A stretch of 60,023 nt of DNA, filler included, from Hausera hauseri (lineage: Eukaryota): the NCBI GenBank assembly GCA_046269625.1. It is 11 parts of 11 records of this genome, joined end to end, with 100 filler letters (N's around TTAATTAATTAA, not from the genome) between each part and the next. Parts side by side here need not be neighbours in the genome. Positions count along the whole stretch, not along the records: positions 18,397 to 24,209 come from JBJURY010184861.1; 10 more parts are not named here. One strand, 5' to 3'. How positions within the stretch are numbered: the stretch's first letter is position 1; each line of letters opens with the position of its first letter. The notes under the pieces are model-generated. The model was not told where the DNA came from. It saw only the letters and a program-made list of their open reading frames with translations, and ran no database searches. The translations under genes and the position numbers were made by a program. Shown one piece after another: positions 3,001 through 60,023 of the stretch.

Positions 3001-3272
3001 ATTTCTAAGTATTAATACCAAATTTGTTATGGTAGTAGCAAATAGACGACCACGCGGGCGAGGGCGATCGTCTTTGTCGTTAATTAAATACATTAGGGGA
3101 AGCTGCCCTAGAAAAATCGCGTCGAGGCAGCGTTAACTCATTTAATTTCTTATTTATGTTGTTAATTGTCTTTTGTAAGATTTCATTTTCCGTGCGTAAT
3201 TGCGCAATTTGTTGCTGCAGCATTGCATTTTCTTGTTGTTGGTCTTTTGTTAATGATGTAGAGATAGATGGT
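1..3272 (-). mobile_element. Decayed Ty3/Gypsy LTR retrotransposon, CsRn1-like (gag 3' part, protease, RT, RNase H, integrase)
   Basis: Fragmented ORFs in Gypsy order: CHCC knuckles at 2896-3040, protease FLIDTGAAISLLP, RT (SPWSSPLHVVPKK, FACIDLHKAYHQIPV, PFGLFEYL), RNase H (TTDASTTAAGAVL, TDHK) and integrase zinc domain (HSLHHPG...). Many frameshifts. Confidence 0.95.
2429..2698 (-). pseudogene. pol: Retropepsin-like aspartic protease of Gypsy pol
   Basis: FLIDTGA catalytic motif and PILDSDFL (ILG-x-DFL-like) motif. Confidence 0.9.
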
Positions 3273-3820
3273 GCTGTGTGAGTGCAGAGAGCTGGTTGAC
3301 CCCACTAAAGTTCCCACTGAGGTCCAACATGTTTCCACAGGCATCAGTTGGCCTGTTATCATTTCAGCCAGGAGTTCAGATACTGATGGAAAGGCACCCG
3401 AGTCATTAAAAGCCCTGCTCCATACTGCTCCACCATCCAGCTCTGCTGAATCAATCATTCGTGCTATGGGAGATGTGCTGTCAAAGATGGACAAGGGATC
3501 AGGGGAAAACAGTGGTTACCGCCGACTTCGAGTGTTCTCTGGCACCTTACCTACACCGGCAGGGGAAGAAGTGTTGGAGCATTGGCTGGAGCAAGCTCAC
3601 CTGATGGTCGAAGAGAGCGACTGCTCCAACAAAGAAAAACGAAGTTGCATAATGGAATGTCTTAGAGGACCTGCTCTTGCTATCATAAAGGCAATACGAA
3701 CAGCTGACGCAGATGTTTCCCCTTCTAAGTGCCTGGATGCTATTGAGAGTGCTTTTGACACAGCAGAATCAGGTGAAGACCTGTACTTTAAGTTTTGACT
3801 ACTGCAACAGGAGAAAGACG
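3268..3820 (+). pseudogene. gag: PNMA (paraneoplastic Ma)-type Gypsy gag fragment, opposite strand to the surrounding element
   Basis: YRRLRVFSG...GEE-x2-EHWLEQAHLMV...MECLRGPAL...CLDAIESAF...ESGEDLYFKF, then a stop and LLQQEKDE. This is a typical PNMA/Gypsy capsid pattern. Confidence 0.85.
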
Positions 3821-3958
3821 AAATACAGAATGGCGAACTCACAGACTTCGTTTTCTTCTATATCTTTCAAATCGCCTGCATCGCCATCTGTTGTTGACAA
3901 TTGTAACTAATTTCGCAAGTTTGTCTGCCTGCAAATTTACTGTTGTCCCAAGCATATT

Positions 3959-4058
3959 NNNNNNNNNNNNNNNNNNNNNNNNNNNNNNNNNNNNNNNNNN
4001 NNTTAATTAATTAANNNNNNNNNNNNNNNNNNNNNNNNNNNNNNNNNNNNNNNNNNNN
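3959..4058. other. Artificial contig spacer (44N-TTAATTAATTAA-44N)
   Basis: Identical spacers also at 8008-8107, 12829-12928, 18297-18396, 24210-24309, 34155-34254, 38626-38725, 43328-43427, 48900-48999 and 53353-53452. A separate 10-N scaffold gap lies at 41573-41582. Adjacency across spacers has no biological meaning. Confidence 0.99.
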
Positions 4059-5030
4059 TGGTGCCTTTGCTAGGACTTGTCGTGTGTCCTAACGGTGAAG
4101 TCAATTTTTTGTAGTGGGTGAGTTTGGCCCACTGTGTTGTGTGAATTTAGTAGTGTTGGTTTTATTGTGTGTTGCAGTTACAGCCAGGTAGGCATTTGTG
4201 TGCCTTTGTGCCAAATTTTGAGTGATAGATGCAAACGATGTTGCTTGTATTGAAATCAGGGGAGTAAAATTTACAACCGATGCAGCATTTTTGAGCATTG
4301 TTACCAAATTTGCTATGATAATAGCAAATAGATGACCGCGCGAGCGACGGCGACCGTCTTTGACGTTGATTAAATACATTAGGGGACGCAGCCCTGGAAA
4401 ACCCCCGTCGAGGCAGCGTTAATTCATTTAATTTTTCGTTTATGTTGTTAATTATCTTCTGTAACTTTTAATTTTCCGTGCGCAATTGCGCAATTTGTTG
4501 CTGCAGCATTGCATTTTGTTGTTGTTGGTCTGTTGTTAATGCTGTAGAGACAGTTGGTATTGTTTTTGAGTGCAGTACTTCATATGCCTTGTCTGCCAAT
4601 TCGCCTAGCTTGTCCAGAGCCGTGGAGTCTTCGACCACGGTAAGCAAAGCTCTTATTTGAAGGAGCAATGCATTTAAAAAATAGCGACGAATAAGTTTTA
4701 GACTATTCTCAGATGTTACGCAAAGGGTGTTAAGGTGAGACAAGGATATGCGTAAGAGTTCAGAAGGCTTCTGAAAGCCCATGGCGTTATCGTCGAAAAA
4801 CCTTTAAATGATGTAGTCGATGGACGGCTCAGTAAGCTTAAGAACGGCATTATAAAGTTGAGTATATGGATCTGTGTGATGAAGGATATCGATGATATTA
4901 GTAATTTTAGTTTTGATGGAAGCTGGTAAGTGGAAAAAAAAGCTGTTTGCTTTGGAAAAAAAAGTCGACGACGTTTTGTGACTGGAGCCAGAATTGGTGC
5001 AGTTTTAGCCAAGTTTAGTAGAGTTTTGGC
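4059..5030 (-). pseudogene. gag: gag of a second CsRn1-like Gypsy copy
   Basis: QKPSELLR...FLNAL..QIRALL...LDKLGELADK, with tandem CHCC knuckles at 4180-4326. Nucleotide sequence aligns with 2770-3272. Confidence 0.85.
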
Positions 5031-5399
5031 TGTCGAAAAAGTATTTGGTGCAGGGTGAATGAGTGAGGAGAATGTGTTGTGTCTAGGTGCTTGAAGCGCT
5101 TTGTTTGGTTAAGTGAATGACAGGGATCTGTGGTTTGGTGAGTTTGTCTGTGGTATCAATTGTGGGTGATGAATCCATGCCAGCACGGATACGGAAATGA
5201 ATGTGAAGGTAGACAAGTTTTAGCAGGTTGGAGGGCTCCAGCGAAAGGCACTATCGATCCATTGTGTGTTATGTAGAAGTCAGAGGAGTGGAGTAAGGTA
5301 GAGATGAAGTTGTGAATGGCCGCGGCGTGTAGGTGCAATGCTGTGCATGTATGAATATATTTGTTATTTAATTAAAGAAAGATGGAGTAGTGAGAAGTG

Positions 5400-5517
5400 A
5401 TACGTCCGGGGACGTGTTGTGGGGCGGCAGCGAAAGGTGTCGTTCGACCCAATGGTGCAGGTTGGGCGGCCGGGACCTCAGCCTCGCCGCGGCGGGTTTT
5501 AAATTTCAGGGTAAACA
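5400..5517 (-). repeat. Probable short LTR (5418-5517) and degenerate tRNA-Trp-like PBS (5400-5417) upstream of gag
   Basis: The minus strand reads TGT...CCGCCCCACA, resembling the LTR ends at 6368 and 34847. It is followed by ACACGTCCCCGGACGTAT, a weak match to the Trp PBS TGGTGACCCCGACGTGAT. Confidence 0.45.
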
Positions 5518-6367
5518 AACTCCCCCTCCAAGGTCCTTTCCTTCTTCTCCCAGTGGACCCAATGAATTTCTTTTCGGATTTTGATCGATAGTCACAGTAT
5601 TGGAGAAAAATAAGGTCATTGATTATGTCAAAAGGATAAATAGACTCTATGGAACAATAGCTGTTTTCCAAATCTTTATTATTTCTGTAGAGCCAATTGC
5701 TATAAATTTCATTGTTTACCGTAGATTCAATTATTGAAGGTTGCAATACATTATACAACAAACCTTTTTGAGCGGTTTTATCATTTTTACTTGGCACCGA
5801 TTCAATTCATTTCGAGATTTCGGTGGTGTGAACATATTTGCAGTCTGAAAAGCGTCATAGCCATAGAAATTTGAGAGATTGTTGTTTCCCGAACAAAACT
5901 GTGGTGGTTCTTGATGTGGGAATCCAATTTCATGATCTCTGAATTAATTGGCCTCGATTTGTTGTTGACCCATCATAATAATACTATTTGGATGAGGATT
6001 TTCGTCATTTAATACAGATGATGGTGGTGCACCTTGGTGCTGCTGCTGCTGGATTTGCATCTGGGCATTAACATTTGGTGCTGCTAAATGCTGATAGTTT
6101 ATTTGCTGTACATTGAGTTGTGCATCGACGAACGTATTGTGTACCTAAGGAAATGGATATTTTTATGTTATACATTCAAATTTGTCTGACAAATGACAGC
6201 TGGTCCATGAAATTGAACGGTAATATTCTTTACCAACAACGCGGAATTGTTCGGAAATTGCTGGGTTGTCGAACTGCAGAACGAGATATCAAAATAGTAA
6301 ACATTGAGATAATTCAAAAATATGGTCACCAACGTTTGAATAAAAGATATCGGCGGTTTATAGAACC

Positions 6368-8007
6368 TGCGAGGTGGGAGATCGGGACCGACTATGGGCA
6401 CGATGCGTCGGCAACGGAGGCCTGGCCGTGCCCAACCAAATGGGTCAAAGGGCACCGGCGGCCATGGGCACCGCATCATCCCCCTGGCAAAGTAAAAACT
6501 ACAAAGGGTAAAAGAGATAGAAAGAAAAACCACAAAAAGAAAAAGTGTCTGTGTCAGCTGGTCTTAGTGTAAATAAGACGTTGGGTACCTTCTACTGATT
6601 TTTCCTGCTATACTTGCTGAATATGATTGCGTGTTTTGTCTTTTTGCGGTGTGCTTGCTTGCAGAGTTTGAAGTTAGGGAAGAAAATTATCAGGTTTTGT
6701 TGTAAGTGTTGTGTCGTGCAAAGATGAGTCAGAATAAAGAGAAGGAGAAGGTGAACGAAGAAGAGAGTTTGTTAAAGACGAAGGAATGATTAAAGGTGTG
6801 GTGGCAGATAAAGGAAAAGAGAAAGAAGTTGAAGTAGAAGCCGGAATGAAATTGTGTGAAAGAGTGGAAGTGGAAGATTAAGCAGCGGTAGTGGTAGAGA
6901 AAGGAAGAAAGATGGGGATAGAAGTAAATAAAAGAGGAAGTCTCGAAGTGGAAGTAAAAGGGGTAGAAGACGATGTGTGAGGAGAAAGGGAGGAAGAAAG
7001 CGCCGAAGATGAGGAAGGTGTGGAAAGAGAAGGAGAGAGAGAGAGAGAGAAAAACTGCGGAAGTACAAGGCGAAAGAGAGCAAGAAGATGAAGAAGACAA
7101 AGGAAAGTAGTTGGGAGGTGTCATGCAAGAGGTAGGAATGATGAAAGGTGTAAATAGAGAGATTGGTGAAGTCAAAACGGTGTTTGATGGAGGAGGTATT
7201 GCAAGAGGAGAAAGCAGGTTGTTACCAGGGAAAGGAGGAGGTGTTGGAAAGCTTGAAGGTGCAAAATCGGGTGGAGAGAAAGAGGCTAAATTGTGAGAAA
7301 TGGAAGTGGAAGTTTTGGGAGAAAACGTAGGGGAAAATGGATTAAGACATTGAGCAGAAATGGAAGGTGAATTGTTGGATTGCTGCGCGTCGTATAAAGA
7401 TGTAGGTGGAGAAGTGACATCGATGAAAGACGTATCGTCGATGAAGAAAGCCGGCTTAGCGTTGTTGATGTGAACTGTTACTTCTTTGTCGTCTTTGAGA
7501 ATTATGATGTTGTGGGAGTATAAGCGAATTACTTTGTAAGGGCCGAGATACTGAAGTTGAAAACTACACGGCGTTTGATTCTTTAGTCAAACAAACTTGG
7601 CAGTATATAAATCGTCGGGTATGTAAGGTTTATTTCCGTGTAACAATCTGCAAAATGAGTCTTTTCTGTTCTCAACAAAGTGTCTCTGTGCCGCTTGTAT
7701 GGTTTTGTCTGTAGGAGTATTGTCCAGCTCATTCAGCTAGAATATAATATGATGGAAGTGTCAAATAATGCTCCTGCAGGTAAACAGCCTGTAGAAGTAG
7801 ATGGTGTGTTTCGCCAGCCAAGAAGAACGTACGGAAGGAGTGTAGTTCAACTGCCATTGGACTTAGCAAGGATTTTAAGAGACGTTTTTATCGTTCGGTG
7901 AAAGCGTTCAAGAAGACCATTCGATGGGGGTGATATGGTGACATGTGAATGTGGTTAATTCCCAATCGATTGACAAGAGCTTTAAACAGGTTGGATTCGA
8001 ACTGTGG
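6368..8007 (-). mobile_element. 3' part of a CsRn1-like Gypsy copy (integrase C-terminus, low-complexity tail, PPT, 3' LTR)
   Basis: Collinear with 34847-36500. Contains the integrase GPY motif, a purine-rich tail on the plus strand, PPT AGGGGGATGA and LTR TGCGG...TCGCA at 6368-6475. Confidence 0.9.
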
Positions 8008-12928: not shown

Positions 12929-13705
12929 TAGTAACTGGACTGATCGTTGCACGTTATATCCGGCGAACATACACCCGTACAAACAATGATCCAACTCTGA
13001 GCGGACTTGTCTACTATCTTTTCCTCTTATGAGCTGTTCTCTTTTTAAGCCGGTTACTTCTTCATATGATTCTTGGAGATGTTTCCGGAGGTTTATGATT
13101 GTAGAGTATATTTCAATCCCATCCCTTTCTTTAATAGATACTTCAATGGGTATTCCATATCCATCATCTCCTCTGCCGCAATTTATCGCGATGATTCTTA
13201 TATTACAACCGTCTTGGATTAGCCTAGATGACTGACGATGTTTATCCTTTTCTACCTCAGTTGGAATTTGTTCAAATTCTATGGCTGGCAAGCGTAGGTT
13301 CCAATCTTCTCTGTAGATTTCTTTCGTTTATTTTAAATGTGCTGAACCGATATTGATGCCCTTCATTGGAGTTCCAGTTTTGGTTTTCCATTCTATAATA
13401 TATTTCTCCGTCAGCTAGGTGGATGTATATATCCTGAATTTTGGCTGGCCGATTTCGGTTTAATTCCTTTAGGGAGTATGCTTTGTCTTGATGATTTTCG
13501 CGCATTGCGTAAAGGTAAATTGTACAATTCTCTGTAATGCCTTTTAGATCATTGGGGATCTCGCTAATTTTTGGGATTTCGATATAGGTTTTTGCTTGTA
13601 AGACTTCGGTTATCCGTCTATACATAGACTTCGATTTCGGAATAAATACTGTGGCTTGTTCCCGCAGATATTCGTAAATGCTAATTCGGCTATCCGTACT
13701 TACTA
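12929..13705 (-). pseudogene. Unknown N-terminal domain plus REX4/ISG20-like DEDDh exonuclease fold (cut by contig end)
   Basis: IIAINCG...EVSI...G.EIYSTII......YEEVTGLKREQL...QVRSEL...L.G.MFAGYNV follows the REX4 pattern VALDCE...RVSIV...G...YD..V.P...YRT.VSGI...L...VQ..V..LL.GRILVGH. The N-terminal domain is homologous to 21917-22350. Confidence 0.7.
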
Positions 13706-13805
13706 TTCTAAAAAATAAAAAATAAGGGTCAATCCTATAACAAAGTATTGTTCTAAATCTGAACCAATTTTTTGTTAGATGGTGGAATAACCCAACCTGT
13801 AATTG

Positions 13806-15215
13806 TCAGGTAATTCCATTATTGATTTCGTTCTGTGGTACCATAATCCTTAATTCCCTCTCGGTGATTTTAATACGCTTATTACAACAGTTTTTGGTAA
13901 TCAATTGACAAAACGCAATAAAAGTTGTGACAGCAAACGTTGACGTTCCAATAATCGATATTGGGTTGTCCATTTAGTTAGGTCTTTCGTTTTAGCGGTA
14001 GTCGTAGTTTCGTCTTCCATTTCATCGTTAGTTAGTGGCTTCGTTAAGACAATTTTGTTTATAGTTCGTACCGTAAACGTTCTACTTTGTTTATTCTCTG
14101 CACCTATTTCTATTACGTAGTCTGTTTTGGGTTTTAAGTAGGTGCAATTAATTCGATGGCTTCCTTTAGCCAGTGTCACTTTTTGATTATTGTGTAACGT
14201 TCGGCAGCTCATTTTTACGCCGCAATTCATTGCTTCCTCCACAACACATTTTATTTCACGTTGTTGTGTCCAATATTTTACAGAAATTATTTCTAGATTC
14301 TTCTGAGGTAATCCACTTGTTTGAAAGACTCTGTTGGAAGTTGAAGTAGTCGTATTCGTTTTTGTAGTCGTAATTCTACTTGTTGCCATTTTGGGCGGAA
14401 TTCCCGAAACTAGATTTTCCAATTGATAACATCCTAGGTAAATGCTCGGCTGGTTTGGTCGAATTTCATATAAATCTAACCGAATTCAATATTTATATCT
14501 CTGGGGTAACTTACAACACCTATTCGGCCTTTCGACGTCAATTTGACAGTATTATTGATTGTGAGCCGCCTTGTTCTCCCTTATGAATTGAACCGTAATT
14601 ACTCGTCCTTTAATTAACCGTCCCTTTGTGTTTATTTGGATGCAGTTGTCCTTTGGGTTTTCCGCTATACTAGCCATATTTTCTTCTAGCATCCGTTTTA
14701 ACGGTTTGACGGACTGGAGCAGGTCTTCTAGCTCTATATTAAGATAGTATCCATAAGTTCGTGGTATAACTATATGTTAATTTAATTTTATTTCTGCGTG
14801 TACATTATTACAGTTCGGCAAATATGAACGATAACTGAGAGCGTAAGAATGTTTGTATTCTACGTTGTAGCAAATTGTATCATCTGACTCGAATTTACAA
14901 TCAAATTCGACTTGGCTAGATAGGTCATAAAATAATATTTGGATTTGCCCCTCATATGGTCCTGGTAACCTAAACCCGGCACATGGGGCCTCTGGTGAAA
15001 AATGATCTAATTTTATTGCTCGTAAAAATTTCTCGTCTTTTTGTTCTGATTTGTGTTCGGGTGCTTCCTCCCTTGGCAGTGAACGATTTAATCCGCTTTT
15101 CATGATCCCATATATATCGCTCATCGAAGTTTCATCGACCCACCATTAGGCGTTAGACTTAGGAGTTAGGACAGCAATCAATGATAAGGCTACTTTTATC
15201 TGCGCGTAAGATACT
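13806..15215 (-). pseudogene. Type I membrane protein: signal peptide, three FN3-like Cys modules, Thr-rich stalks, TM
   Basis: YAQIKVALSLIAVLTPKSNA lies in frame after the integrase GPY. The FN3 signature is LKPKTDYVIEIGAEN...FTVRT. After a frameshift near 13975 the frame reads PISIIGTSTFAVTTFIAFCQLI-TKNCCNKRIK (TM plus basic/Cys tail). Confidence 0.7.
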
Positions 15216-15299
15216 GGTCTAGTGATGACTGACAAAGTCCTTGTTTCTTGCTGTCTTAGACTGTAGTGTTTACCTGGTCTTATATCTGTTTTAACTACT

Positions 15300-17900
15300 C
15301 TTTGAATCGATACTACTTCTTCTTTGCCGTTTTTATTAACATAGACTGTGGTTGGCGTTGTGCGGACGATTTCATATGGCCCTCTTCCAGTACGGGTTAA
15401 TTTCAATGATGTACCTTTCTTCGCGACCGGATAATGTATATAAACCCAGTTCCCTTTTTCCAGATCATGAAGCTTAGCCTTTTTATCATATTGTTTTTTA
15501 AATTGTTCCTGGTATTCAAGTGATAATATTTTTGCAACTTCCTAACACTTTTGCAATCTTGCCTGTAAGACTTCGGCAAGGTTTTGCTCTAGAGCCTCGA
15601 GACTCTTCGTACGGCACTTTACCTAGATCTGTAGGTAAGATTGATTCTCGTCCATACATAAAAAAGAATGGTCTAAATCCTGTTGCTGGATGTGGGGTCG
15701 TATTGATTGCGAACTGTGTCCCTTCTAAGAATTTGTCCCAACCCTTTTGGTCCCTAGTCACTACTGTTGATAGTATACGAATGACTGTTGCGTTCATTCG
15801 TTCGACCATTCCATTACATTGGGGTAGTACGCGGTAGTGGTTAAACGTTTTATTTTGAATATCTTGGTAATCTGTTTGAATAATTCACTTGTGAAGTTCC
15901 TTCCTCTATCCGTTAAAATTTAGTACGGCGGTCCTTATCTTCAGATGATTTTCCTTATCACTGCCTCGGCTAAAGTTTTTGCCTTTTGGTCTAATAGTGC
16001 CACTAGTTCGACAAAGTGCGTTAATCGATCCACGCATGTTAGAATATATCTGTTATTTTTATGAGTTTTAGGTAAGGATCCCACTATATTCATAGACATA
16101 GCTTGCTTCGGCCTGTCTGGTACGCTCATGGGCTTTAATTCGGCTACGTAGACTTTCGTTTTCTTTTGCTTTGTTGCACAAATTTGGCAAGCACTTATTT
16201 AATTTTTCACATCGATATAAATGCTTGGCCAATAGTATTTATTTAGTATCCTTTCGCAGGTCTTTTCCCAAGACATGTGTCCAGCTAAATATGAATCATG
16301 TTCGGCCATAAGTACTTCAATGCGTAATCCTTTTGGAATAACTATTAATCTTCTTCCCTTTCGCTCGTAATATAGGATGTTATCTTGGTTCGATGCGTGA
16401 TATTTATGTCCGTACTTCTGTAGATGCTTTTTCAGTTGTCGTCCTTTGGGCATTTTGCCGTTTTGTGCAAACTCAATAATTTGCTGAATAACCTTATCTT
16501 TAGCTTGCTCTGCAGTGATCCTGATCGTTTTATCCAGGATTAGGGTTCTTTGACGTTCAGTTATTTGTTCGAGTTACGTTTTCTCCGCTGAGTAATCCGA
16601 CTTGTTTTTGTCTTTAACCTTGATAATGCGTTGGCGTCGACGTGCTTATTACCTGGTTTGTATTGGAATTCAATGTTATATCGTCAGATTTCCTCGATCC
16701 AGCGGTTTAATTTACATGTTGGGTTACTAGCTCGTCCTCTCAATGTCGTAGTCGCTTTGTGGTCGGTCACTATTATACTCATTTGTTCATAGACATAGAC
16801 ATTAAAGTGTCATAGTGCTTCCTTTACGGCTAATGTTTATAATCTGGTAACCGAGTAATTCTTTTCTGCTTTCTTTAACGAGCGTCCTCCATAGGATATT
16901 GGGTGTTCTACTTCTTTATCTCCTCGTTTCTGAGCTAATTCATATCCTATACCTTCTTTACTTGCATCTGTTTTATGATGCTATCATTACGTCGTAGGTT
17001 CAAATCAGGGTATCTTAGAACTGGTTCGCCTGTCAAAATTTTCTTCATTTCATCGAATGCTTTTTGCTTCACTTCCGTCCATCTCCACTTAGTCCCTTTT
17101 TTGAGTAGGCGATATCGTGGTGCGTTAATTTTCGAATTGGCCGGTACGTAAGTGGCATAATACCCACATAGGTCTAACCAGTGTCTCAGCTCTTTTTGAT
17201 TCTGCGGTTCCATACAATCGGATATTTTATTTAGCAGGAATTTATCCGGTTTTGATCCTCCATCTCAGACTATGTGTCCGAGGTACAATACTGCGTTCTG
17301 TGCCCATTTACATTTCTTTGGATTTAGTTTCAACCCTGCTTGTTCCAGTCACATGAGTGTATTTTCAATGTCCCTTAAGTGTTCTTCTTCTGTTTTTGAT
17401 GCTATCATTACGTCGTCCAGATACGCGAAAACATGATCAAGTCTCATGAAAATCTTATTCATCATTCTAGTAAAGATAGCTGGTCCTGTGGTGATGCCGA
17501 AAGGCATAACATTAAATTCGTATACGCCATCGTGTGTTTTAAACGCTGTCTGATATCGATCTTCTTCTTCGATTTCCACTTGCCAGTATCCCGACTGTAA
17601 GTCAAGAGTGGTAAACCATTTCGTTCCCGATAGTCTGTCTAAAGTTTTCTTTACCGACGGTGAGGGAAACCCGTCTTTCATCATAAGCGTGTTTAATGCC
17701 CTATAATCTATACAAAATCGATGTTTCGTGGTTCCTTGATAAGTAGCTTGGTACCATGATAAGTAGCTTGGTCGAATTATATCGGCCTTTAACATTCGCT
17801 CTGCCTCTTTAGTTATTTCGGGTCTCAATGAATGGAGAGGTGTGTACCATTTGGGCATTTTCTGCTCTTCTGGATCGATTTCGTCATTAGAGCCGGGTTT
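15300..17900 (-). pseudogene. pol: Gypsy pol (RT-RNase H-integrase), frameshifted
   Basis: YLDD; HDSYLAGH...YYWPSI; VERMNATV...W...FAINTTPHPATGFRPFFFMYGRE; GPYEI. Confidence 0.95.
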
Positions 17901-18411
17901 TTTTCTTATTGGAATTGTTAATCTCAGGGCTTTTGATCTACCTATGTCTTCTTTATTTTGTGCAATTATTGAACAGTATTTACATAGTAATTCGTAGAAC
18001 TTGCAATACGCCTCAGGAGGAAATTTGGTTTAGACGTGAGGTGGAAATTCTGCACATTTGTATGGTTTTTCCTCTGTTGTTACTGCCGATACTCTGCAAG
18101 TGTGACCTAAAGTAGTGTTAGCGTGCAATCTTACGGGGGTTGGTGCATTGTTCACTAATCTGATATGTATGCGTTCCGTCGCTACTCAAGATAAGATATT
18201 GCTAAACATGAGGTTTGGGTCGATATTCTCTTGAGGTTCAAAATATACTGGCAGATCTTCGTCTTGACGAATCTGTGCGAAAATTATCATTTCGGTNNNN
18301 NNNNNNNNNNNNNNNNNNNNNNNNNNNNNNNNNNNNNNNNTTAATTAATTAANNNNNNNNNNNNNNNNNNNNNNNNNNNNNNNNNNNNNNNNNNNNCCAG
18401 TCCCAAAAACA

Positions 18412-20330
18412 GTGAAAGGAGTTCGTAAATTTCTCGGTCTTACAGGATATTATAGAAAATTTGTTAAAAATTATCAACAAATAGCTTCTCCTCTACACTC
18501 ATTACTACAAGAAAACTCCAAACTTGTGTGGACGCAGGAATGTCAAAAAGCATACCAACAACTAAAAGATAGTCTGTTAGCCCCACCAATATTGGCTTAT
18601 CCAAATATGTCTAAACCATATTTTTTAGCCACAGACGCAAGTAAAGTTGGAATAGGAGTTGTTTTATCTCAGAAGGATGATCAAGGACAAGAACATCCTA
18701 TATCATTTGGAGGACGGAAACTGAGAAAACACGAGAAAAATTATTCTACAATTGAGAGAGAATTACTCGCAATCGTATACGCCTTAGAACAGTACGGACA
18801 GTATCTGTCGGAAACTAAACCAATTATCATCTATACTGACCATAAGCCATTACAATGGCTAAAGAACCATAAGAATCCAAATAGTCGTTTGATGAAATGG
18901 GCAATGCTACTCCAACCTTACGATTTAAAGTTCGAATATAAAACTGGTAAGGCCAATGCAAATGCAGACTATATGTCTAGAATACCTGAAGATATTGATC
19001 AAGAGGAAGAAATAACGGATAAACCAAGTGTAATAGCAGCTATTTGGAGTATTACAGAATACGAAAAATCGTTGCAGCAGAAACAACGGAGTGATGAACA
19101 AATAAAACAAATTATGGAATATCTCCAGAAGAAAATTACGCCAAAAGATACTGATCTCCATACTCACTTGATAAAGTTTGCTGAAAATTATCAAATGAAA
19201 GATGGTATACTATATTATAATTACAAAGGAAAACTGGTCGTTGTCGTCCCCCAAGAAGATGTAAAATTATTGTTAACACAATACCATGATGGCATGTTGG
19301 GAGGACATCAGTCGAAGAAGCGAACACTAGGCAGACTGAGGAGAAAATATTACTGGCATAAAATGCCTAAAGATGTAGAAGAATGGTGCAGAAGTTGCCC
19401 CATTTGTGCAACACGGAAGAATACCGGCTCAAAAATTAAGGTCCCTTTGAAACCATTAGAATGTCCACCAGCTCCTATGGAGTTCTCAGCAATGGACATC
19501 TTAGGACCACTGCCAATGACGATAAATGGAAATAAGTATATGTTGGTTTTTGTTGACTTATTTTCCAGATGGCCAGTAGTAGTTCCGATACCAGACCAAA
19601 AAGCACAGACTATTGCACAAGCATTTGTTGAAGAGATTGTATTTAATTATGGAGCACCTACTAAACTATTGACGGACCAAGCTCCAAATTTCACTGGAGA
19701 AGTAATGGCTGAGATATCGAAAATATTTCAAATATTACAATTAAAAACTACCCCATATCATCTACAAACCGATGGAGCGGTCGAGCGATTTAATGAAGTT
19801 CTGATTAACATGTTGGCGACAATAGTTGGGGGACGACAGGATGATTGGGATGAATGTATTGGACCCTGTTTGTTCGCCATTGGGAACGCGATTTATCCTG
19901 CAACCCGGGAAACTCCATTTTATTTAATGTGTCTTGGAGATGCTCACATGCCCGTTGATTTGGATTTCAGGATATCAGCTTCACACTTGGAGGATGTAAA
20001 ATATCAAGAATTACTGGAGGAAAAATTGGGTTATGTATGGAGTTTGGCTTCGCAGAATATGAAAAGATGTCGGAAAGAATGCAAAGATGGATGTGATGAG
20101 GGAGCCAAAAGTCATAGCTTTAAACCTGGGGATAAAATTGTGTTGCATGCACCTTTGTGTAGGAAGGGAAGGACTCCGAAATTGGATAGACCATGTGGGG
20201 GGTCCATATATGATTCAAAAGGTGGATGAAACAAGTGTATATTTAAACAGGAATAAAAGAAACGAGAAGGATCCTATAAAGATTCATGTGAATCGATGTA
20301 GACTAGCACCGTTGGAATCACAAATAAGAA
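18412..20330 (+). CDS. pol: Gypsy Pol: RT connection, RNase H, integrase (HHCC, DDE, GPY)
   Basis: FLGLTGYYRKFV, ATDAS..GIGVVL, YSTIERELLA, YTDHKPL, HDGMLGGH...CRSCPIC, MDILGPLP, TDQAPNF, DGAVERFN. A 1-nt frameshift in the G-run near 20197-20202 precedes GPY. Confidence 0.96.
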
Positions 20331-21637
20331 ATGGAGATCCAGGTTTGTCATTGGTGGTGGCATTTGTGATGTTGAGTCTGATGACTTGTATATCGGCCCG
20401 GGAATTGGAGCCGATATATCGTGGGGTATAGGTCGGAAAATACCCCTGCATACGAGTATTTGGAAGTCGAAATTTGACTATCAACGATTATGTCTATATG
20501 CATATATCGAGGGTATCCACATCACAGAGGGTGATCGCTGGATCTTGTGATTTGTATTCGAAACGTTCTAGTCACATCTGCTGCGGTTTGTCATGTTGGA
20601 TGTCATATGGAGTTCAATATGCTCTTACTGGAATAATAGACGAGAAATGGCGCACATCTTGTTGCTCATTTCCGGGTGTGATATACTGCTTTGGTAAGCC
20701 AGATTTCCTTGTAACATTCTGCACAAAGATTGTGAAAAATGGACCATGTGTAACGTCTGAGCCAGATTCCCCGGTGGCCAGGCATCGAACAATTAAATAT
20801 GCAATGTTTAATAAGACCAATACGATGGAGTGTAGACCTTTTTATCGGGATCCTCATCTATGTTGCCCCATAGCCTTTGATAGGGAGTATATGATATGGT
20901 GTTGGACAAAATTGGGAGCGAATGGTGACTGGAGATAATCGGATGGGTTGATGGCTCCAGAAGTGGTGGTGAAATCACCAAGGGTAATAATAACCTTAAA
21001 AAGGAGAGTGACTACTCCGCTGACACTGCCCACTGTAGCGGCTAGTCCAACTATAGAAGCTGAGAAGAATATCAGGGAATTGGATATAATTGTCCAACCA
21101 ACAACTCACTCACTGGTTATTGCAGTGTCCAATTTAAAAACCACAAACGTGGAATTTGAATGTTGCTTTTACCATGGGAGAATGAGTGAGGGTGTCATAA
21201 CTCCAGAGGAGCCCACATCGGCTTGTGTGTTCCTGGGGAACGATACGAATTATAAGATAGCTGTAGCCGAACTTGATAAAGAAGGACAAATTTTGCAGAC
21301 AGTTTGTCGTATAGGAAAGACGTTAAAGCAAGTGGTTTTAACGACAACAAAAATTATAGAAATAACAAATGTGCAAAATCATGATGACAACGAGAATAAA
21401 TATTTTTGGATACTCGTTGTACTGTGTATCTTCTTGGTGTTATTAGCCATACCTTTACCTTTGATATTTTATTTCTTGAAAATGAGACAACGACGGCGTG
21501 GAATCGGGGAAATATTGAATCAATTAAGGATGTTAAGAGAGGACTCCCAAGAATCGTTAGCGGACATAGGCGCGCCTTGTTCACAAGAACAACGGCGAGT
21601 TGAAAAAAGTGGGCAAGCCGGGGAGCTTGCCGATTAG
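20330..21637 (+). pseudogene. Type I membrane protein: signal peptide, three FN3-like Cys modules, Thr-rich stalks, TM, basic cytoplasmic tail
   Basis: ORFs 20087-20431, 20474-20938 and 20948-21637 share one frame. Signal-like GLSLVVAFVMLSLMTCISA, FN3-like FLGNDTNYKIAVAE, and TM YFWILVVLCIFLVLLAIPLPLIFYFL followed by KMRQRRR. Confidence 0.8.
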
Positions 21638-21916
21638 AAGCAGCTAGTACGGCCGCTAGAATGTGGACTGACTGGGGAATTTGCCAGTCAAGAGTGGCAG
21701 TCCCTACCGCTTGGAGGTATAACTGTGTGTCTATGCACGGGAATTCGGGACCAGGCCGCAAAATTCCTAGCGACCTCTACTTGTGGACAATCAAAATGTA
21801 AAGATATTATTATATGTAGAAAGTTTTGGCCGCTGTTGATATTGATTTTTTTGGTCGGCGAAGGGTCCGAACAGGTCCAGTGACCGAGCATTTTTTGACG
21901 CAGTATTGTTGCCAGT

Positions 21917-23041
21917 TTGTTGGCGTCCAGCAGGAATTGCGTCTGCTATAAAGGGGCCCATATGATGCCAAATCACCTAAAGGGACAAACTGTGGATCGG
22001 AGAGGTGGCCTTATAATTAAGTTACAAGCATGTTCTACTATGTTGTCTGATTTGATCGATCTCACAAGAGGAGTTATAGCCATCTGCGTTTCAGTGTCGA
22101 ATGGAACTATTCAGTTGAGAGGCGGGGTTCTCTCTAATGGAATCACTGATGCAATTGACATTCCGTCCTCAACCACGATTGGATTGGATGAGAGGTTCTT
22201 CGAAAATGTGGAGGTAACTATCAGGATTGTAAATAAAATTCATCCGGTCTTATATATCGAGGTTGTCAGGCAGGAGAATGTTTTCCATAATGAGTCAAGG
22301 CAACTCAATTGCCCAATGTCAATTCCTAGTGATTCTTTACTGGGGAGGGGTGCATCGTTTGTAAGATCGACTCAAATACGGAAGGAGGATATGGTAATTG
22401 TGACTACTGGTTCCGCGTATGTTATGCAGCCAGTTCGCAAAATGGAGGTGACACTGATGGAACTAGCCATTATGAATTTGGATGGTGAAGTTATTTTCGA
22501 TAGAATATTGTGCCCACGTGACAGAATGGATAATTGTAGTAGTCATGTGGCCGGCTTAAGAGAGCCGGACATAATGGGACGGACAGATCTCTTGCAAACT
22601 TGCTCTCTGATTGAAACTCATCTTATCGGAGAAATTATCGTTGGAATGAATGTATTTTGTACTCTTAATTGCATTCTTGGATGCAGTCATCATTTTGTCT
22701 TGGGCATGGGAGATCTACTTTATCATGAGAGGGCCAACCCGAGACAGGAGTTTGATTCCTAATACATTTTGACTGCATTCAATAATGGTGCTTGCCCTCG
22801 GGGAACAAAGGATGGAGCGGGGTCAATGCTGGATATATATAGTTCAATTCCGAAATATAAAGATGAAAACCTAATGGATAATATATCATTGACAGGTACC
22901 CATGTGACTGATTTGGAAGTCAAAGAAAACCCTGGGAGGACAGGGGATTTCGCGAGTGGCAAACGGCTTTTTCAGATGTCTTTGATAGGAAGTGGCGAAA
23001 TGGAATTGTCATTGACGAAAGGACCCAAGAAAATGAAATAA
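21917..23041 (+). pseudogene. Unknown N-terminal domain plus REX4/ISG20-like DEDDh exonuclease fold
   Basis: ELAIMNLDGEVIFDRILCP...DNCSSHVAGLRE.DI...L.GEIIVGMNV...MGDL (IRDT-like)...TKDGAGSMLDIY (SVEDARA.M.LY-like). One in-frame stop at 22760-22762. Confidence 0.78.
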
Positions 23042-23844
23042 GGGAGATCTGACTTGGCAGATTCCTCAACTCAAGTTACAATCGATTTGACAAGGAACAT
23101 AAGAAAGTCAATTTCGTCTAAAGAGACAATTGCACTAAAAAGAGGGATTGAAGTGGGGGATCAGTGGCTGGAAATGGATGCAGTGCGGAGACGGCTTCAT
23201 CTGGGGAGGGAGGTGTCGAACATGTGAGTCGGGTGTCAATTGACTGACTGACCGGATTGATTGATCTTTTATATTGTTTTGACCAAAGTTTAATTTTCAT
23301 CTAATTGTTTTGTTGTTTTGGAAATCGAGTGTGAATTTTTGTGATTTTTGTCATGTGAAAGAGGGGTATACAAACCTCAACATTTTGTCACAATACACAA
23401 TATTCTCTTCATGTCTACTTATGCTCTTCGTGATTGTAAGTGTGTTTTTTTATTCATTTTCATTTTATTTTGGTTATCATTAATTAGATAATATTAAAGG
23501 ATTAGTGATTTTATTCTTTTGTTGTACGTACAAGAAATTAATCTTTGGTAGTAGGTGTAAGTAAATATAAAATCAAGACCCTTTTTCTTTTAGCGTCCAT
23601 AAAGTCGCTGATTTTAAATTCATTGCAAGTAAGGGAGAGACCGCCAGTATTGCCTCCTGGCGTCGTACTCACACATTAAGATTAATTAAGAACTATAAAT
23701 AAGTCATATCAATCCACAGATTGCTACTCCAGAATTTAAGTAAAGATAAGTTTGAGGTGCATTGACCCAGACTTGTATTTGATTGATTTTAGGCTTGGTG
23801 AGTAAAATCTCCAAGCTAACTTATAACAACCTTAAACTTATCAT

Positions 23845-23861
23845 TGGTGCCCCGAGTGAGG
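23845..23861 (+). promoter_or_regulatory. Primer-binding site, elongator tRNA-Met
   Basis: TGGTGCCCCGAGTGAGG lies one nt after the LTR end CA. It matches the complement of the animal elongator tRNA-Met 3' end (TGGTGCCCCGTGTGAGG) with one mismatch. Confidence 0.85.
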
Positions 23862-23964
23862 AGGCACACTGGCGTCGTATTCTTTACGTAAGAGACACGC
23901 TATTAATATAAATTCGTGCACTGATTCGGTACGGAGTAGCCCCGAATTAGACGAAAATCTTTAG

Positions 23965-24209
23965 TTGGAAAATCAGAATCCCGAAATGTCCTCAGAACTT
24001 GGAACCAGTTTAGGTAGTAATCTAAACAGTACGATGGTATTACCCATGGAAAAATACGAGGCGAAGCCGGACCAAGATTACGCAGAGTTCATTATGCAAT
24101 ACGAAATGTATTCCGAAAGTTATGGATGGACGGATGAGCATAGGATCAAACGGCTCCCTTTACATCTTAAAGGCATAGCACTTAGTGCTTATACCCAAAT
24201 AAAAGAAGA
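23965..24209 (+). CDS. gag: Gypsy gag N-terminus (cut by contig end)
   Basis: KYEAKPDQDYAEFIMQYEMYSESYGWTDEHRIKRLPLHLKGIALSAY is a Ty3-type capsid pattern, about 100 nt downstream of the PBS. Confidence 0.88.
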
Positions 24210-34254: not shown

Positions 34255-34456
34255 TTCTTTACAATTACGTTTTTCATGTAACTGGTACCTTTCTTTACAT
34301 TTATGATAATAGGATCCAATGGTATTTGTACAAAAATGCTCGCAGCAACTATTTTGATATGCGTATTCATCTTCGTTTGTAAAATAATATACTTTGAAAC
34401 CTTTTTTCTGTACGGTTCCGTCCGAGAAGAGTGCGATTTTAACTTCATTTGTATTG
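34255..34456 (-). pseudogene. BMP1/tolloid-like CUB-EGF coding fragment
   Basis: NEVKIALFSDGTVQKKGFKVYYFT-NEDEYAYQNSCCEHFCTNTIGSYYHKCKERYQLHEKRNCKE resembles tolloid F.SD.TV.KKGF...D.DEC...NGGC.H.C.NT.GSY.C.C..G..LH....CKE. Some Cys/Gly residues are lost. Not present in the ORF track. Confidence 0.8.
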
Positions 34457-34846
34457 AAATTTCATTTAGTTATTCCAACAATATTAATTGTAAATTCATG
34501 CGTGGAAAATCGATTGTTTGAGCCGTTGTATATGGTGGTTGCGTTCGAATGGAAAAGTTATGAATGGAATACAATTGCAGATGCTGGACGGAGATGGGAG
34601 CTAAAGACTGTTCTGCTGCACAGTAATTTGCGAGTTTTCGTTTGTTATGTGTCGTGGATAATTTTGAACACTGACAAAATATTCCTAACTTTCTCTAAGA
34701 CGATCTAATTGAAATCTACAAAATTCGACATGATTAAAGCGGTTATTTACAGAGGATTCAAAGATATTTTGTAGACGTTGCAATATATGAAACTACAACT
34801 TCATGAACGTTATTTGTCACTAGAATATGAATTGCTGCAATGAAAT

Positions 34847-37800
34847 TTAGAGGCGGAAGATCGGGGCCGACTATGGACCCAACACGGCGGCAATGGACGC
34901 CCGGCCGTGTCCAACCAAATGGGTCAGAGGGCGCTGGCCGCTGTGGATACCACATTACCCCCACCCCCCGCCCGTGGCAAAGTGAAAACTATAAAGGGTA
35001 AAAAAGAAAGAGAAAAAAACGCAAAAGAAAAAAATATCTGTCAGTCGGTGTTAATGTAGACAAGACATTGGGTGCCTTTTAATGATTTTTCCTGCTATAC
35101 TTGCTGAATATGACTGTGTGTTTTGTTTTTATGTTGTGTATTTGTTTGCAGAGGTTGCAGTTGGGGAAAAAATTGTAGGATTTTGTTTTTAGTGTTGCGT
35201 CGTGCAAAGATGAGTCAGAATAAAGAGAAGGAGGATGTGAAGGAGGAAGAGAGATGGTTGAAGATGAAGGAATGATTAAAGGTGTAGTGGCGGATAAAGG
35301 AAAACAGAGAGAAGTTGGGGTAGAAGTGAAAATTGAATTATGTGAGAGAGTTGAAGTGGAAGATGAAACAGAAGTTGTAGTAGAGAGAGGAAATGGATAG
35401 GAAAAGAGATAAAGAGAGGAGAAAGTTGTGAACCGGAAGTGAAAGGAGTAAAAGATGATGTGTGAGAAGAAAGATGGGAAGAAAGAGCCGAAGATGAGGA
35501 ATGTGTGGAAAAAGAGGGACAGAGAGAGAGAGAGAAAACGGCGAAGTGCAAGGCGAAAGAAAGCGAGAAGATGGAGAAGGCAAGGATGAGTAGTTGGAGG
35601 GTGGTGTGCAAGAGTTTGGAATGATGAAAGGTGTAGATAGAGAGATTGGTAAAGTCGAAATGGTGTTTGATGGAGGAAGTGCTGCAAAAGGAGAAAGCAG
35701 GTTGTTGTGAGGAGATGAAGGAGGTGGTGGAAGGCTTGAAGGTGCAAAATCGGATGGGGAAAAAGATGCTGAACGGTCAGAAAAAACTGAAGTAGAAGTC
35801 TTGGGCGAAAACGTATGAGAAAGTGGATTAAGAAATTGAGCAGAGATGGAAGGTAGATTGTTAGATTGCTGCGCGTCGTGTAAGAATGATGGAGGAAAAG
35901 TGGTTTTGATTGGAGACGTGTCGTCAATGAAGAAGGCCGGTTTAGCATTATAGATGTGAACGGTTATTTCTTTGTCGTCTTTGAGAATGATGATGTTGTG
36001 GGAGTGTAAGCGAATAACTTTGTAAGGGCCGAAATACTGAGGTTGAAAACCACACGGCATCTGATTCTTTAGCCAAACAAACTTGGCAGTGTATAAATCG
36101 TCGGGCATGTAGGGTTTGTTTGCGTGTAACAGTCTGCAAAATGAGTAATTTCTGATCTCAACGAAGTGTCTGCGTGCTGCTTGTATGGTTTCGTCTGTGG
36201 AAGTATTGTCCAGCTCAGTCAGCTCGAATAATGATATGATGTAAGTGCCAAATAATGCTTCTGCAGGTGAACAGCCTGTAGAAGTTTATGGTGTGTTCCG
36301 CCAGCCAAGCAGAACGTACGGAAGGAGTTTGGTCCAACTGCAATTGGACTCAGCAAGAATTTTGAGAGACGTTTTCATTGTTCGGTGAAAGCGTTCGAGA
36401 AGGCCGTTCGATTGGGGATGATATGGTGACGTGTGAATGTGGTTAATTCCCAATCGATTGACAGGAGCTTTAAACAGGTTGGATTCGAACTGTAAACCTT
36501 GGTCCGAGATGATGTGGCGAGGTGATCCAAACCTGCTGATCCAACTGCGGTTTCTGTGTTAGTGCTCCGAAGAGGGACGGTTTCTGGCCATCGCGAGGCA
36601 CGGTCCATCATTATGAGGATGAACTGATGGCCGTTGTCTATGGGTAATGGGCCTACAATGTCAATGTGGACAGATTCGATACGAGACGTGCAGGAAAAAT
36701 GAAATAATGGTGGCTTTAGGTGCTTAGTAATTTTGTATTTTTGGCATGCCACACACTGCCTAACCCATGCCTGCACGTCAGAGCGCATCGACAGCCATAC
36801 TACTTGGTGTTGTAAGAGGCGAAAAGTGGCCTTGGCACCAGTATGATGCAACGAATGTACGCTGTGGAACGCTTATTTTTGAAGCCACTCAGAAAGAATG
36901 ATTTTGGAATTATTAGGTTTGGAGGTGTCAAAGGCCACACCGTCAATGGTATTGCAAGATTTAAAAAATTTAAGGATGTCAAGAAATGGCTGGTTTTGTT
37001 GAAGCTTGGTTTGATGAAAAATTGTTATAAAATCAATCGAGCTGACCGCTCGGGACAAAAAGTCAGCTACTAAATTGTCCACTCAGTTTAAATATTTAAA
37101 GTGAAAATTAAATGTTGACAAATACGATATTCGCCTCTCCTGACGTGGCGAAGGTGATTTCGTGGTGAGAATTTGAAGCAAGGGCTTGTGGTCCGTTTGT
37201 ATGGTAAAAGTTCGTGCAGTTAGGATATGTTTGAAGTGTTTTTCGGCAAGGACCATTGCAAGCAATTCTCGTTCAAAGGTGGAATATCTTTGCTCTTGTT
37301 CCGTGAATTTTCGAGAGAAGAACTCTGGTGACTCATGAAATCCATTTTAACTTGATGGAGGATTGCACCCGCAGCTGTTGTGGATGCGTCGGTGGTTAAG
37401 AAAAGTTCTGCATATAAGTCTGGATAAGCCAGAATTTCCACAGTTTTCAAATTGTCTTTGAGACGATCGAAAGCATTGACTAAATTGGCGGTCCACTGAA
37501 TAGGCTGTTTCTTCTTGCCAGAGCTTAGTGCTGTAAATGGAGCGGTTAAAGTGAAACAGTGCGGAACGTACTTATGAATAAAGTGCAAGGTTCCGAGGAA
37601 AAAACGCATCTCTGTTGATGTACGTGGCAGTTGTATGGTTTTGAGCTGAGTGATGCGGTTCGGCTGAGGTGAATGTCCTAAGGAGCTAATAACATGACCT
37701 AGGAAATTGACCTTTTGTTGAAAAAAAAAAGCATTTAGAGAAATTGATTTGCAAGTTGTTTTGGTGTAAGCGCTGGAAGATTAGACGTAAGTGTTTGGAG

Positions 37801-38625
37801 TGCTGCTTCGAGGAAGAGGATGCAATTAAGATGTCATCAATATAGGGATAGGCGAAGTCTAATCCTGAAAGAACTGTATCGACATGCCTTTGGAAGGTCT
37901 GGGAAGCGCTACGGAGTCCAAAAGGCATAAAGAGGTATTCGAAAAGGCCGAAATGTGTAATGACAGCCGTTTTCGGAATGTCTGCGGTGGTATGCTTTAT
38001 ACAGATCAATGCAGGAAAAGACGCTTTCACCATGGAGCCTGTGAAGGATATCGTTGACTAATAGTAGAGGGTAGGCATCCATTGTTGTTATGGTGTTGAG
38101 TTGGCGGTAATCACCGCATGGGCGAAAGGTGCTATATTTTTTGGAACCACATGCAGTGGTGAAGACCAGAGGGATTTGGATCTTCTGATTATGCCTGATT
38201 TTTCAAGGTCGAGAAACTCAGCCTTCACTGCCTGTCTGCGTCGAGGTGATAGCGGGCGGACCTTTTGCCGGATTGGTCGTTGATGTGCAATTACGATGTG
38301 ATGAAAGGTGGATTGAGGTGGTACGAATGATTTGTCCTTTTGCAACAGACGCGTGAAGGAGGACAAAATGTATTGCTGTAAATCAGAAGGCAACGATGAC
38401 AAATTATCCGATGGTGTCGATGCATCGTGACTGGATGAAGTTGGGGTATGAGTTGTAGACAAGGTGTTGCGACTAGGTGGTATTTGGTGCAGGATGTTTG
38501 TGTTGAAATTGGTGTTGGCAGCTGTGCTATTAGTAATTGGTGCCACGCAGTTGGCAATATCGCATTTGTCACAGTAATAAAAATTTCTATATAATAAATA
38601 ATTATGAAAATAATTCAAATCAGTA
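34847..38625 (-). mobile_element. Decayed CsRn1-like Gypsy copy (RT, RNase H, integrase, low-complexity tail, PPT, 3' LTR)
   Basis: YIDD, TTDAS, VHIDIVGPLP and FGPYKV motifs. Collinear with 1-2330 and 6368-8007. PPT GGGGGGTGGGGG precedes the LTR at 34847-34954. Confidence 0.95.
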
Positions 38626-48085: not shown

Positions 48086-48201
48086 TTGTTTGTCTGTCAA
48101 TCGACAATCGTACGACGACGATGTTTGTTTATAGTTGATGAGCTCGATGATGCTTTACGGCGTTTTCTCAACTATTACCAGCGAATTGTTTTTTGACTGA
48201 T

Positions 48202-48899
48202 TCAACGACTCCCGGTGCAGCTCTTTTTATTTCTGAAAAGGCGCGTTCCTTCATATGGTTCGTCCTGTGCTGTTTTTGCTGCCACGGCTCCAATACGCTT
48301 CAACACCGAAAATGATAAACGTGCCAATGTGCGCAACCATCCAGAGTCATACTGTTTACCAACGGAATACGGCAGTTTTCCGCTTTGCTGAGGTTTACTG
48401 TAAATGAAAACGATTTCAGAATCAATCGTGTTGCGGATTCGACGGAAATAAAGAGTTAGACTGGTTGTGCCACCGTAGGGAAATTCAATAAAGTAGCCAG
48501 TGTCACATCTGATATTGACTTCAACATTGTTTATAGATGTACGTGCCACAGGTACGTACATTGTATTATCGAGCTTGACAGTGACATTGTCGCCAGCAGT
48601 ATACTTCCTGCTTTCCGGATAAATTGCATAGAGTAGAGGTACACGTACTCTACTCACCAAAATCGGTTCCGTGACGTTCATGCAAATGTACATTTGACTT
48701 AGTCCAGTTTTTAATTTGGGTTTAAGTGTCGCAACATGAGCCTTCTTTGTATTCCATGCCTCAAACCGCTGTTTTTCAAAACCCATTACCATGGCCAAAG
48801 CTTTGCCCAATGAAATGTCGACAATATTCTTAGCCTGTTCAAATTTAATGTACCCATTGGCATCTGACTCGAAAACTTTAAATATCTCCTTATACTTTT
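48202..48899 (-). pseudogene. Polinton minor capsid (penton) C-terminus followed by a small basic/amphipathic virion protein
   Basis: MYICMNVTEPILV...VPLL...YVPV...INNVEVNIRCDTG..IEF.....LTLYFRR, then QQSG.LP...GKQYDSGWLRTLARLSFSVLK. Confidence 0.8.
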
Positions 48900-48999
48900 N
48901 NNNNNNNNNNNNNNNNNNNNNNNNNNNNNNNNNNNNNNNNNNNTTAATTAATTAANNNNNNNNNNNNNNNNNNNNNNNNNNNNNNNNNNNNNNNNNNNN

Positions 49000-51620: not shown

Positions 51621-51639
51621 GTATTCTTCATCACATAGA

Positions 51640-59481: not shown

Positions 59482-59489
59482 TCCACGAC

Positions 59490-60017: not shown

Positions 60018-60023
60018 CTTCTG

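Follow-up and report, generated by a model that had tools for sequence, protein, structure and literature searches.

Exonuclease genes carried by LTR retrotransposons are known from bdelloid rotifers, where Juno and Vesta elements, as well as Terminons, have an ORF3 encoding a DEDDy exonuclease (Rodriguez et al. 2017, PMC5408684); such cargo in bdelloid rotifer LTR retrotransposons is also treated in parts of PMC6338049. According to the ORF3 sections of PMC5408684, the Juno/Vesta protein is RNase D-like and of the DEDDy type with its residues intact (DEED), and what it has in common with the locus described here is a gene for a DnaQ-like 3'-5' exonuclease as separate 3' cargo of a Ty3/gypsy element. 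Unlike rotifer ORF3, the present family encodes a DEDDh domain of the ISG20/REXO4 type, fused to a barrel domain, and comes as intact-looking and as dead paralogues, the latter missing the catalytic residues. A second close system is that of the planarian Burro/GYPSM1 giant gypsy-like elements, whose layout features a fusion domain placed after Gag and before the protease, or else ankyrin repeats (PMC6431247, element descriptions). Judged by that published layout, relatives of our element resemble them in carrying either a fusion protein (L005, L009, L010, P0004 and P0009) or ankyrin repeats (L001, L002, P0002 and P0003), but the element descriptions of PMC6431247 list no exonuclease or barrel ORF and both are present in the family studied here.

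Among host proteins, ISG20, ISG20L2 and REXO4 (RNase T / DEDDh family, PF00929) are the best profile and structure matches to the domain under study; unlike the accessory gene of the window they keep D-E-D-H-D and are without the barrel domain. A DEDD fold that binds RNA without catalysis, or without need of it, has been described for Exuperantia, the Exo domain of Egalitarian, EXD1 and Maelstrom (relevant passages of PMC5785220, PMC7968707 and PMC5408684), but these are host genes on other DEDD branches, and our domain has neither a SAM-like domain nor the ECHC zinc tetrad, which in Maelstrom replaces DEDD (PMC7968707, same passages). Exonuclease cargo in LTR retrotransposons is nothing new; new with respect to the literature searched (main texts; Repbase-type entries and subscription papers may describe the ORF) is the fusion of a DEDDh domain of ISG20 type with a barrel, in a family that has both dead and intact-looking paralogues, and the sections of PMC3985635 and PMC13269885 that were covered hold nothing further on this architecture.

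The window, by which we mean the whole stretch of 60,023 nucleotides that was analysed, is made of unlinked contigs with N spacers between them. The two element copies compared here are separate contigs, copy 1 occupying 12929-18296 (minus strand) and copy 2 occupying 18397-24209 (plus strand). Their pol regions and flanks contain the following features.

18397 to 20229, plus strand: copy 2 pol remnant with RNase H and integrase (Pfam: RT_RNaseH 2e-39, Integrase_H2C2 4e-20, rve 6e-13)
20063 to 21637, plus strand: copy 2 post-integrase extension, an ectodomain with a transmembrane segment at about 21395-21485 (translation, hydropathy)
23845 to 23861, plus strand: primer-binding-site-like motif, about 800 bases 3' of the accessory ORF (1 match, 0.01 expected)
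13700 to 18296, minus strand: copy 1 decayed pol (RT, RNase H, integrase) and post-integrase extension (RVT_1 9e-28; tblastx to copy 2)

Both copies have a Ty3/gypsy pol with the order RT-RNase H-integrase, followed by a post-integrase extension and then by a nuclease-like region (Pfam, tblastx), and both contigs are without the Gag-Env part. The 5' part of the copy 2 pol is cut off by the contig start, its frame changes near the integrase end, and the extension is interrupted by stops at 20429 and 20936; polyproteins P0002-P0009 end in the same layout as this extension. The post-integrase ectodomain of copy 1 (13901-14485, minus strand) gave weak fibronectin-III-type matches in Pfam (fn3, E=0.037; Pur_ac_phosph_N, E=0.003). 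Identity between the copies is 26% across the nuclease stretch and 22-44% across the longer pol matches, and on this sequence comparison they are to be regarded as distant families, not copies of one element. The primer-binding-site-like motif, which we take to resemble the 3' end of tRNA-Met, is found again after the dead ORF of a related locus (L006), and at 23845-23861 it likely marks an LTR end and the start of a further unit. Paired LTRs could not be found within the window contig or five related loci.

The 3' part of copy 2 and its counterpart in copy 1 were read as follows.

21899 to 23041, plus strand: copy 2 accessory ORF, with a predicted double-stranded beta-helix domain, a predicted DEDDh-fold domain and a short tail (first ATG 21962)
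21929 to 22279, plus strand: predicted N-terminal cupin/AlkB-type barrel without canonical metal site (profile of 12 relatives, E=1.2e-7)
22391 to 22850, plus strand: predicted ISG20/REXO4-fold pseudo-exonuclease, second domain of the accessory ORF (profile, structure match)
22403 to 22411, plus strand: ExoI D-x-E position, T-T-G in copy 2 (codon reading)
22661 to 22663, plus strand: ExoII Asp position, Thr in copy 2 (codon reading, alignment)
22799 to 22816, plus strand: ExoIII His and Asp positions, Arg (22799) and Gly (22814) in copy 2, 3' of the stop
13308 to 13637, minus strand: copy 1 N-terminal barrel domain (profile, E=7.7e-7)
12929 to 13198, minus strand: copy 1 DEDDh-fold domain from ExoI to ExoII, cut by the contig end (profile, E=3.7e-8)

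The accessory ORF is a separate 3'-end gene of a Burro-like Ty3/gypsy element. It contains a single in-frame stop at 22760-22762, between ExoII and ExoIII, and is open from 21899 to 22762. The catalytic set D-E-D-H-D is missing, copy 2 having T-G-T-R-G (with ExoI reading V-T-T-G-S at 22400-22414) and copy 1 having N, G and S, from I-N-C-G at 13186-13175 (minus strand; ExoI) and a Ser at ExoII, before its contig ends at 12929 ahead of ExoIII. This codon reading confirms the ExoI and ExoII residues that an initial annotation of the window had reported for both copies, and the absence of the ExoIII His from copy 2. Most catalytic codons of both copies are two or three changes away from Asp, Glu or His. 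The ExoI Asn of copy 1 is one transition from Asp and this copy is heavily decayed; being old and broken, it makes a weaker case for selected catalytic loss than copy 2 does.

Searched alone, the window protein matched no Pfam family and no homologue among 822 candidates, its only phmmer match in the PDB was to ISG20 (E=0.68), and an Atlas match of 0.88 is a lead only; hypermutation, described below, likely blunts word-based searches with the copy 2 protein. A profile of 12 relatives from which the window rows were left out found the nuclease domain of copy 2 with E=3e-21 and that of copy 1 with E=4e-8, and the same profile with the window row added matched ISG20L2 (5e-25) and also SDN1 and ISG20. 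An AlphaFold model of the copy 2 ORF, built with X at the stop (mean pLDDT 67), had ISG20 as its best structural match (Z 16.5, rmsd 3.0, 156 aligned) and matched ISG20L2 in Foldseek with E=7e-8, compared with Z 9.7 for Exuperantia and 9.0 for nsp14. From this model, region 22391-22850 is predicted to have a DnaQ-like fold with the ExoI-III layout, on the ISG20/REXO4 branch, which agrees with the earlier proposal that the REX4/ISG20 scaffold is kept. The analogies drawn at that time fit less well. No replacement tetrad like that of Maelstrom was found; apart from the ExoIII His of intact-looking members, and from two columns that vary, no column has a conserved Cys or His. The 50 matches listed for the copy 2 model do not include Maelstrom. 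Arenavirus NP and coronavirus nsp14, offered as parallels too, are enzymatically active and belong to a different structural branch (PMC7968707, passages on these families).

The N-terminal barrel domain, which the initial annotation did not mention, had no sequence match in Pfam or the PDB. Its structural matches in copy 2 are to cupins, Ofd2 and ALKBH6, and a model of the L005 barrel (pLDDT 84) matched cupins with Z up to 12.1, ALKBH6 with Z 10.8 (122 residues) and Ofd2 with Z 10.7, the matches spanning almost all of the domain. These models predict a double-stranded beta-helix fold, and the cupin matches form a broad plateau (Z 9-12) that points to no function. Canonical cupin/AlkB metal ligands are His/His/Asp-Glu. 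Only one His is conserved in the barrel, being present in 13 of 14 relatives and missing from copy 2, and therefore no canonical metal site is left. The barrel and exonuclease parts of copy 1 sit in different frames.

When the pol remnant was used as query, seven long polyproteins stood out at 43-47% identity, the rest having 38% or less over the full query, and an alignment of these seven was used to fetch 80 metagenome loci. Twelve open ORFs of 443-717 codons homologous to the window region were found in 10 of the 80 loci, all of them in the closest pol relatives and all directly downstream of the polyprotein on the same strand. An eleventh locus (L003) has the cut-off start of an accessory ORF, and the remaining loci gave no accessory-ORF match at E 0.01. 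Because no exonuclease was found inside 120 long polyproteins, the nuclease is a separate ORF. A further protein search yielded five proteins, namely two duplicates of the loci, two new members known without genomic context, and one host REXO4-like protein; scans of viral contigs gave no match. These relatives, 13-19% identical to the window protein, are a narrow sample that comes from three metagenome data sets only, going by record prefixes.

Several of the polyproteins carry extra domains. Those of L005, L009, L010, P0004 and P0009 (2600-3700 aa) have a mononegaviral-type fusion protein that sits in frame between Gag and protease; L005:97-11205, L009:2-10279 and L010:403-9954 are single polyproteins of 3200-3700 aa, with the PF24664 fusion protein and a second membrane-anchored ectodomain 3' of the integrase. 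Ankyrin repeats and extra aspartic-protease-like domains are inserted past the integrase in L001:3-7106, L002:1-6660, P0002 and P0003. A RING-finger ORF (Pfam 4e-7) lies between the polyprotein and the dead nuclease gene at L004:2684-6445 and L014:2055-5873. The polyproteins of these two loci are 92% identical, with a fourfold-site difference of 0.17 versus 0.56 for the RING ORF and 0.70 for the nuclease ORF, and this contrast suggests, as far as sequence can tell, that a 3' module was exchanged. Among the minor features of these loci, L001 has short tandem repeats between or after its tandem accessory genes and a further downstream ORF with a weak ubiquitin-like match (L001:10906-11517, E=0.04), and in L006 the stretch that separates the dead gene from the primer-binding-site-like motif contains an array of tandem repeats with a 64-base unit (L006:5849-6680).

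The catalytic state varies across the family. Five of the 12 ORFs look intact, with D-E-D-H-D in L005, L008, L001:9043 and L002:8592 and D-E-E-H-D in L009, and both new member proteins have D-E-D-H-D. The set is missing from the other seven (L004, L014, L006, L010, L007, L001:7268 and L002:6861), in which ExoI reads S-x-R (four ORFs), G-x-V, A-x-T or D-x-L. Intact-looking members have the ExoIII His (DEDDh) and match PF00929 at or near the Pfam cut-off; the dead members and the window protein are below Pfam detection, with the exception of L007 (E=0.003). In two loci the accessory genes are in tandem, dead first and then intact-looking (L001:7268-10371 and L002:6861-9920). Four loci whose last gene is dead end within 600 bases of it, and perhaps an active partner lies downstream in those. 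No second nuclease gene was found before the primer-binding-site-like motif in copy 2 or L006.

The dead genes nevertheless remain open, across 462-717 codons in all seven, and conserved. Over the nuclease domain, sister pairs of dead ORFs (support 99-100) had pN values of 0.28, 0.30 and 0.45 versus pS values of 0.88, 0.70 and 0.85. A codon model gave omega 0.049 for the seven dead domains, with a log-likelihood 154 better than that for omega=1, and gave 0.049 also for the five intact-looking domains, a value of about 0.05 being a rough figure with synonymous sites saturated. Scaffold residues, among them the P-R pair and, on either side of ExoII, a preceding Gly and a following Asp, are kept in dead members, whose domains are not more basic than the intact-looking ones (net charge -1 to +11 versus -3 to +14). 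Within the copy 2 family, 9 of 12 listed differences other than G/A are synonymous (0.33 expected, p=0.004). These comparisons indicate purifying selection on the dead domains, and a selected pseudo-nuclease is what we have here in all likelihood. The dead form is thus a real, selected trait of a lineage, but the clade as a whole is not ancestrally inactive, contrary to what had been put forward: an active-type set is kept by the five intact-looking ORFs and the two further proteins, and the host outgroup is of the active type too. Relatives with D-E-D-H-D, which had been expected to speak against a pseudo-nuclease, do exist in the clade, yet beside them stand dead genes that are open and conserved.

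How the dead form arose is less clear. In the domain tree the dead genes lie on one side with weak support, at 79/91, which becomes 50/83 without the catalytic columns, and long branches meet there; the integrase tree needs three state changes, at least two of them forced by starred branches. One loss after duplication, several losses, or module swaps may each account for these trees.

Copy 2 also carries a mutational scar, which must be taken into account when reading its catalytic residues.

19400 to 23400 (approximate), plus strand: sense-strand A-to-G hypermutation tract (dinucleotide ratios; site by site for 22401-22780 only)

Copy 2 was compared with sister contigs, which are short pieces of sister copies from one DNA run, possibly the window's own source; the run also contains the window contig. 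No RNA run was among those listed, which has no bearing on expression. Between 22370 and 22860 the window has G where a sister has A at 42 places and the reverse at 3, whereas C/T differences are balanced (10 versus 13). All 28 listed A-to-G sites follow T (17) or A (11), versus 52 of 101 unchanged A, and none follows G or C; a 3' G is enriched at these sites (8 of 28, versus 11 of 101 unchanged A). The sister letter is nearer to the relatives at 15 of 18 informative sites, and the window copy is therefore the derived state. Pol and ectodomain of copy 2 added 22 G/A rows with weaker context (16 after A or T), and neither copy 1 nor the 5' pol part of copy 2 showed hypermutation. Decay of CpG sites in the sisters was considered as a source of the G/A excess and rejected, given that none of the 28 sites follows C and that C/T differences are balanced. 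ADAR is very probably the cause of the tract. ADAR-type hypermutation of viral genomes consists of A-to-G changes with a 5' neighbour preference avoiding G (PMC8586724, sections on this signature); the one-strand A-to-G excess avoiding 5' G is common to both cases, but the changes described in those sections hit viral genomes and the scar of copy 2 is fixed in a genomic retrotransposon copy.

At the ExoI Glu site two sister contigs have an Asn codon versus the Gly of the window, and the Gly of V-T-T-G-S is thus due to the A-to-G hypermutation of copy 2. There is no listed difference at either of the ExoI Thr codons, nor among the listed rows at the ExoII Thr; this comparison rests on 40 of 72 difference rows, which cover ExoI and ExoII, and for the main sister contig 26 of 35 differences are accounted for, the rest fitting its unlisted ends. 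The Thr codons of ExoI and ExoII contain no G, therefore editing cannot be their origin, and the ExoIII codons cannot be derived from His or Asp codons by A-to-G change alone. Taken together, the sequences indicate that the copy 2 family was non-catalytic at ExoI and ExoII before editing, and under selection, and that editing altered the spelling and not the verdict. The earlier description of a parallel loss with different residues holds in that the residues do differ, but the difference is partly a product of this hypermutation and the copies are of different families. More generally, a catalytic 'loss' read off single copies may be distorted by RNA-editing scars.

What the dead protein does can be approached from its relatives. 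Our preferred reading, which we hold with a little more confidence than doubt, is that the nuclease-fold part of this accessory gene with its two domains, at 22391-22850, is non-catalytic and conserved and binds RNA of its own element. RNA binding as the job of the dead domain is, by analogy, somewhat better than an even guess, although its net charge lends no support; Exo domains without catalysis can bind RNA, as described for Exuperantia and Egalitarian in passages of PMC5785220. An ancestor of the element would have taken up a host nuclease of the REXO4/ISG20 type, which would have been fused to the barrel domain and then duplicated, and one or more descendants would have given up catalysis and retained a binding role. 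That role could be to shield, package or move element RNA, much as mRNAs are handled by Exuperantia and Egalitarian, and ADAR would have edited the RNA of copy 2 ahead of its reverse transcription.

Perhaps the dead protein instead counters an RNA defence of the host, be it siRNA, piRNA or the sensing of double-stranded RNA by ADAR, as a suppressor or decoy that masks element RNA or titrates partners of host DEDDh nucleases. The A-to-G scar is in keeping with this, in that element RNA likely met a double-stranded-RNA enzyme, as is the presence of SDN1, a small-RNA nuclease, among near relatives of the fold; the accessory region has evolved faster than pol or else been exchanged, as in the fourfold-site differences of L004 and L014 (polyprotein versus nuclease ORF), and a silencing role was raised for the rotifer ORF3 nucleases in the sections of Rodriguez et al. 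(PMC5408684) on that gene. Nonetheless the viral models cited, arenavirus NP and nsp14, work by catalysis and belong to other structural branches, and an arms race along the domain has left no trace in the omega value, which is low, so that we consider this role unlikely. The fullest version of it is that Burro-like elements took a host REXO4/ISG20 nuclease, duplicated it and made of one paralogue a catalysis-free anti-defence protein that hides RNA from ADAR and from Dicer/Argonaute, the ADAR-type scar in copy 2 being a record of the pressure that was answered; this we regard as doubtful. If true, an animal retrotransposon would have made a silencing suppressor of its own out of a pseudo-enzyme.

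The dead protein could also be a protein-binding scaffold or adaptor, for example in pathways of ubiquitin or cell death, or could pair with the active paralogue in a dimer and so regulate it. RING-finger ORFs adjoin the dead gene upstream in L004 and L014, dead and intact-looking genes are in tandem in L001 and L002, the barrel matches the dimerisation cupins of CENP-C/Mif2 (Z about 10), and ubiquitin- and apoptosis-related domains are carried by Burro elements (element descriptions of PMC6431247). The matches to those cupins, however, belong to the plateau that names no function, and copy 2 and L006, having no second nuclease gene before the motif, show that an active partner of its own is not required; such a role is improbable.

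It is more improbable still that the domain remains a nuclease with a rewired active site, comparable to the ECHC tetrad of Maelstrom. An Asp before the central helix is found in all seven dead ORFs and both window copies, an Asp after ExoII in all seven and copy 2, and a Glu at the ExoIII Asp column in five of the seven, but both conserved Asp are largely common to intact-looking members too and likely structural, the domain has no conserved Cys/His set, and ExoI, reading S-x-R, G-x-V, A-x-T, D-x-L or T-x-N/G, has no common substitute.

That the missing residues come only from decay and editing that followed insertion, or from a useless gene drifting under relaxed constraint, has very little probability: both window copies are broken, copy 2 by its stop and by the editing-type Gly of ExoI among its hypermutated sites, as the suggestion of some losses after insertion had it, and 5 of 12 relatives keep the catalytic set, but as a sole cause for the clade this is largely refuted by the seven open dead ORFs with saturated synonymous and low non-synonymous divergence, by sister contigs of copy 2 that are non-catalytic as well, and by catalytic codons most of which need two or three changes.

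A job is known for few of the accessory proteins that animal LTR retrotransposons encode, and whether such elements bring their own counter-defence is an open question. The present family is a natural experiment, in that a single captured nuclease has given rise to intact-looking and to dead paralogues, which sometimes adjoin in one element. Its proteins are small enough to be expressed alone, so that direct tests can be made both of how an enzyme becomes a pseudo-enzyme and of the idea that retrotransposons act against silencing.

The window holds other elements besides. At 1-8007 and 34255-38625 (minus strand) there is another gypsy family, with copies 83-90% alike, a GC skew of 0.18-0.40 and a long low-complexity 3' region. 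ORFs at 47000-51700 (minus strand) are presumably pieces of Polinton/adintovirus capsid and DNA polymerase B, which they resemble, and at 55380-60023 we assume a Jockey-like reverse-transcriptase fragment (plus strand) and a CR1/L2-like LINE that is almost fully open and has an ORF1 of the SGNH type (minus strand).
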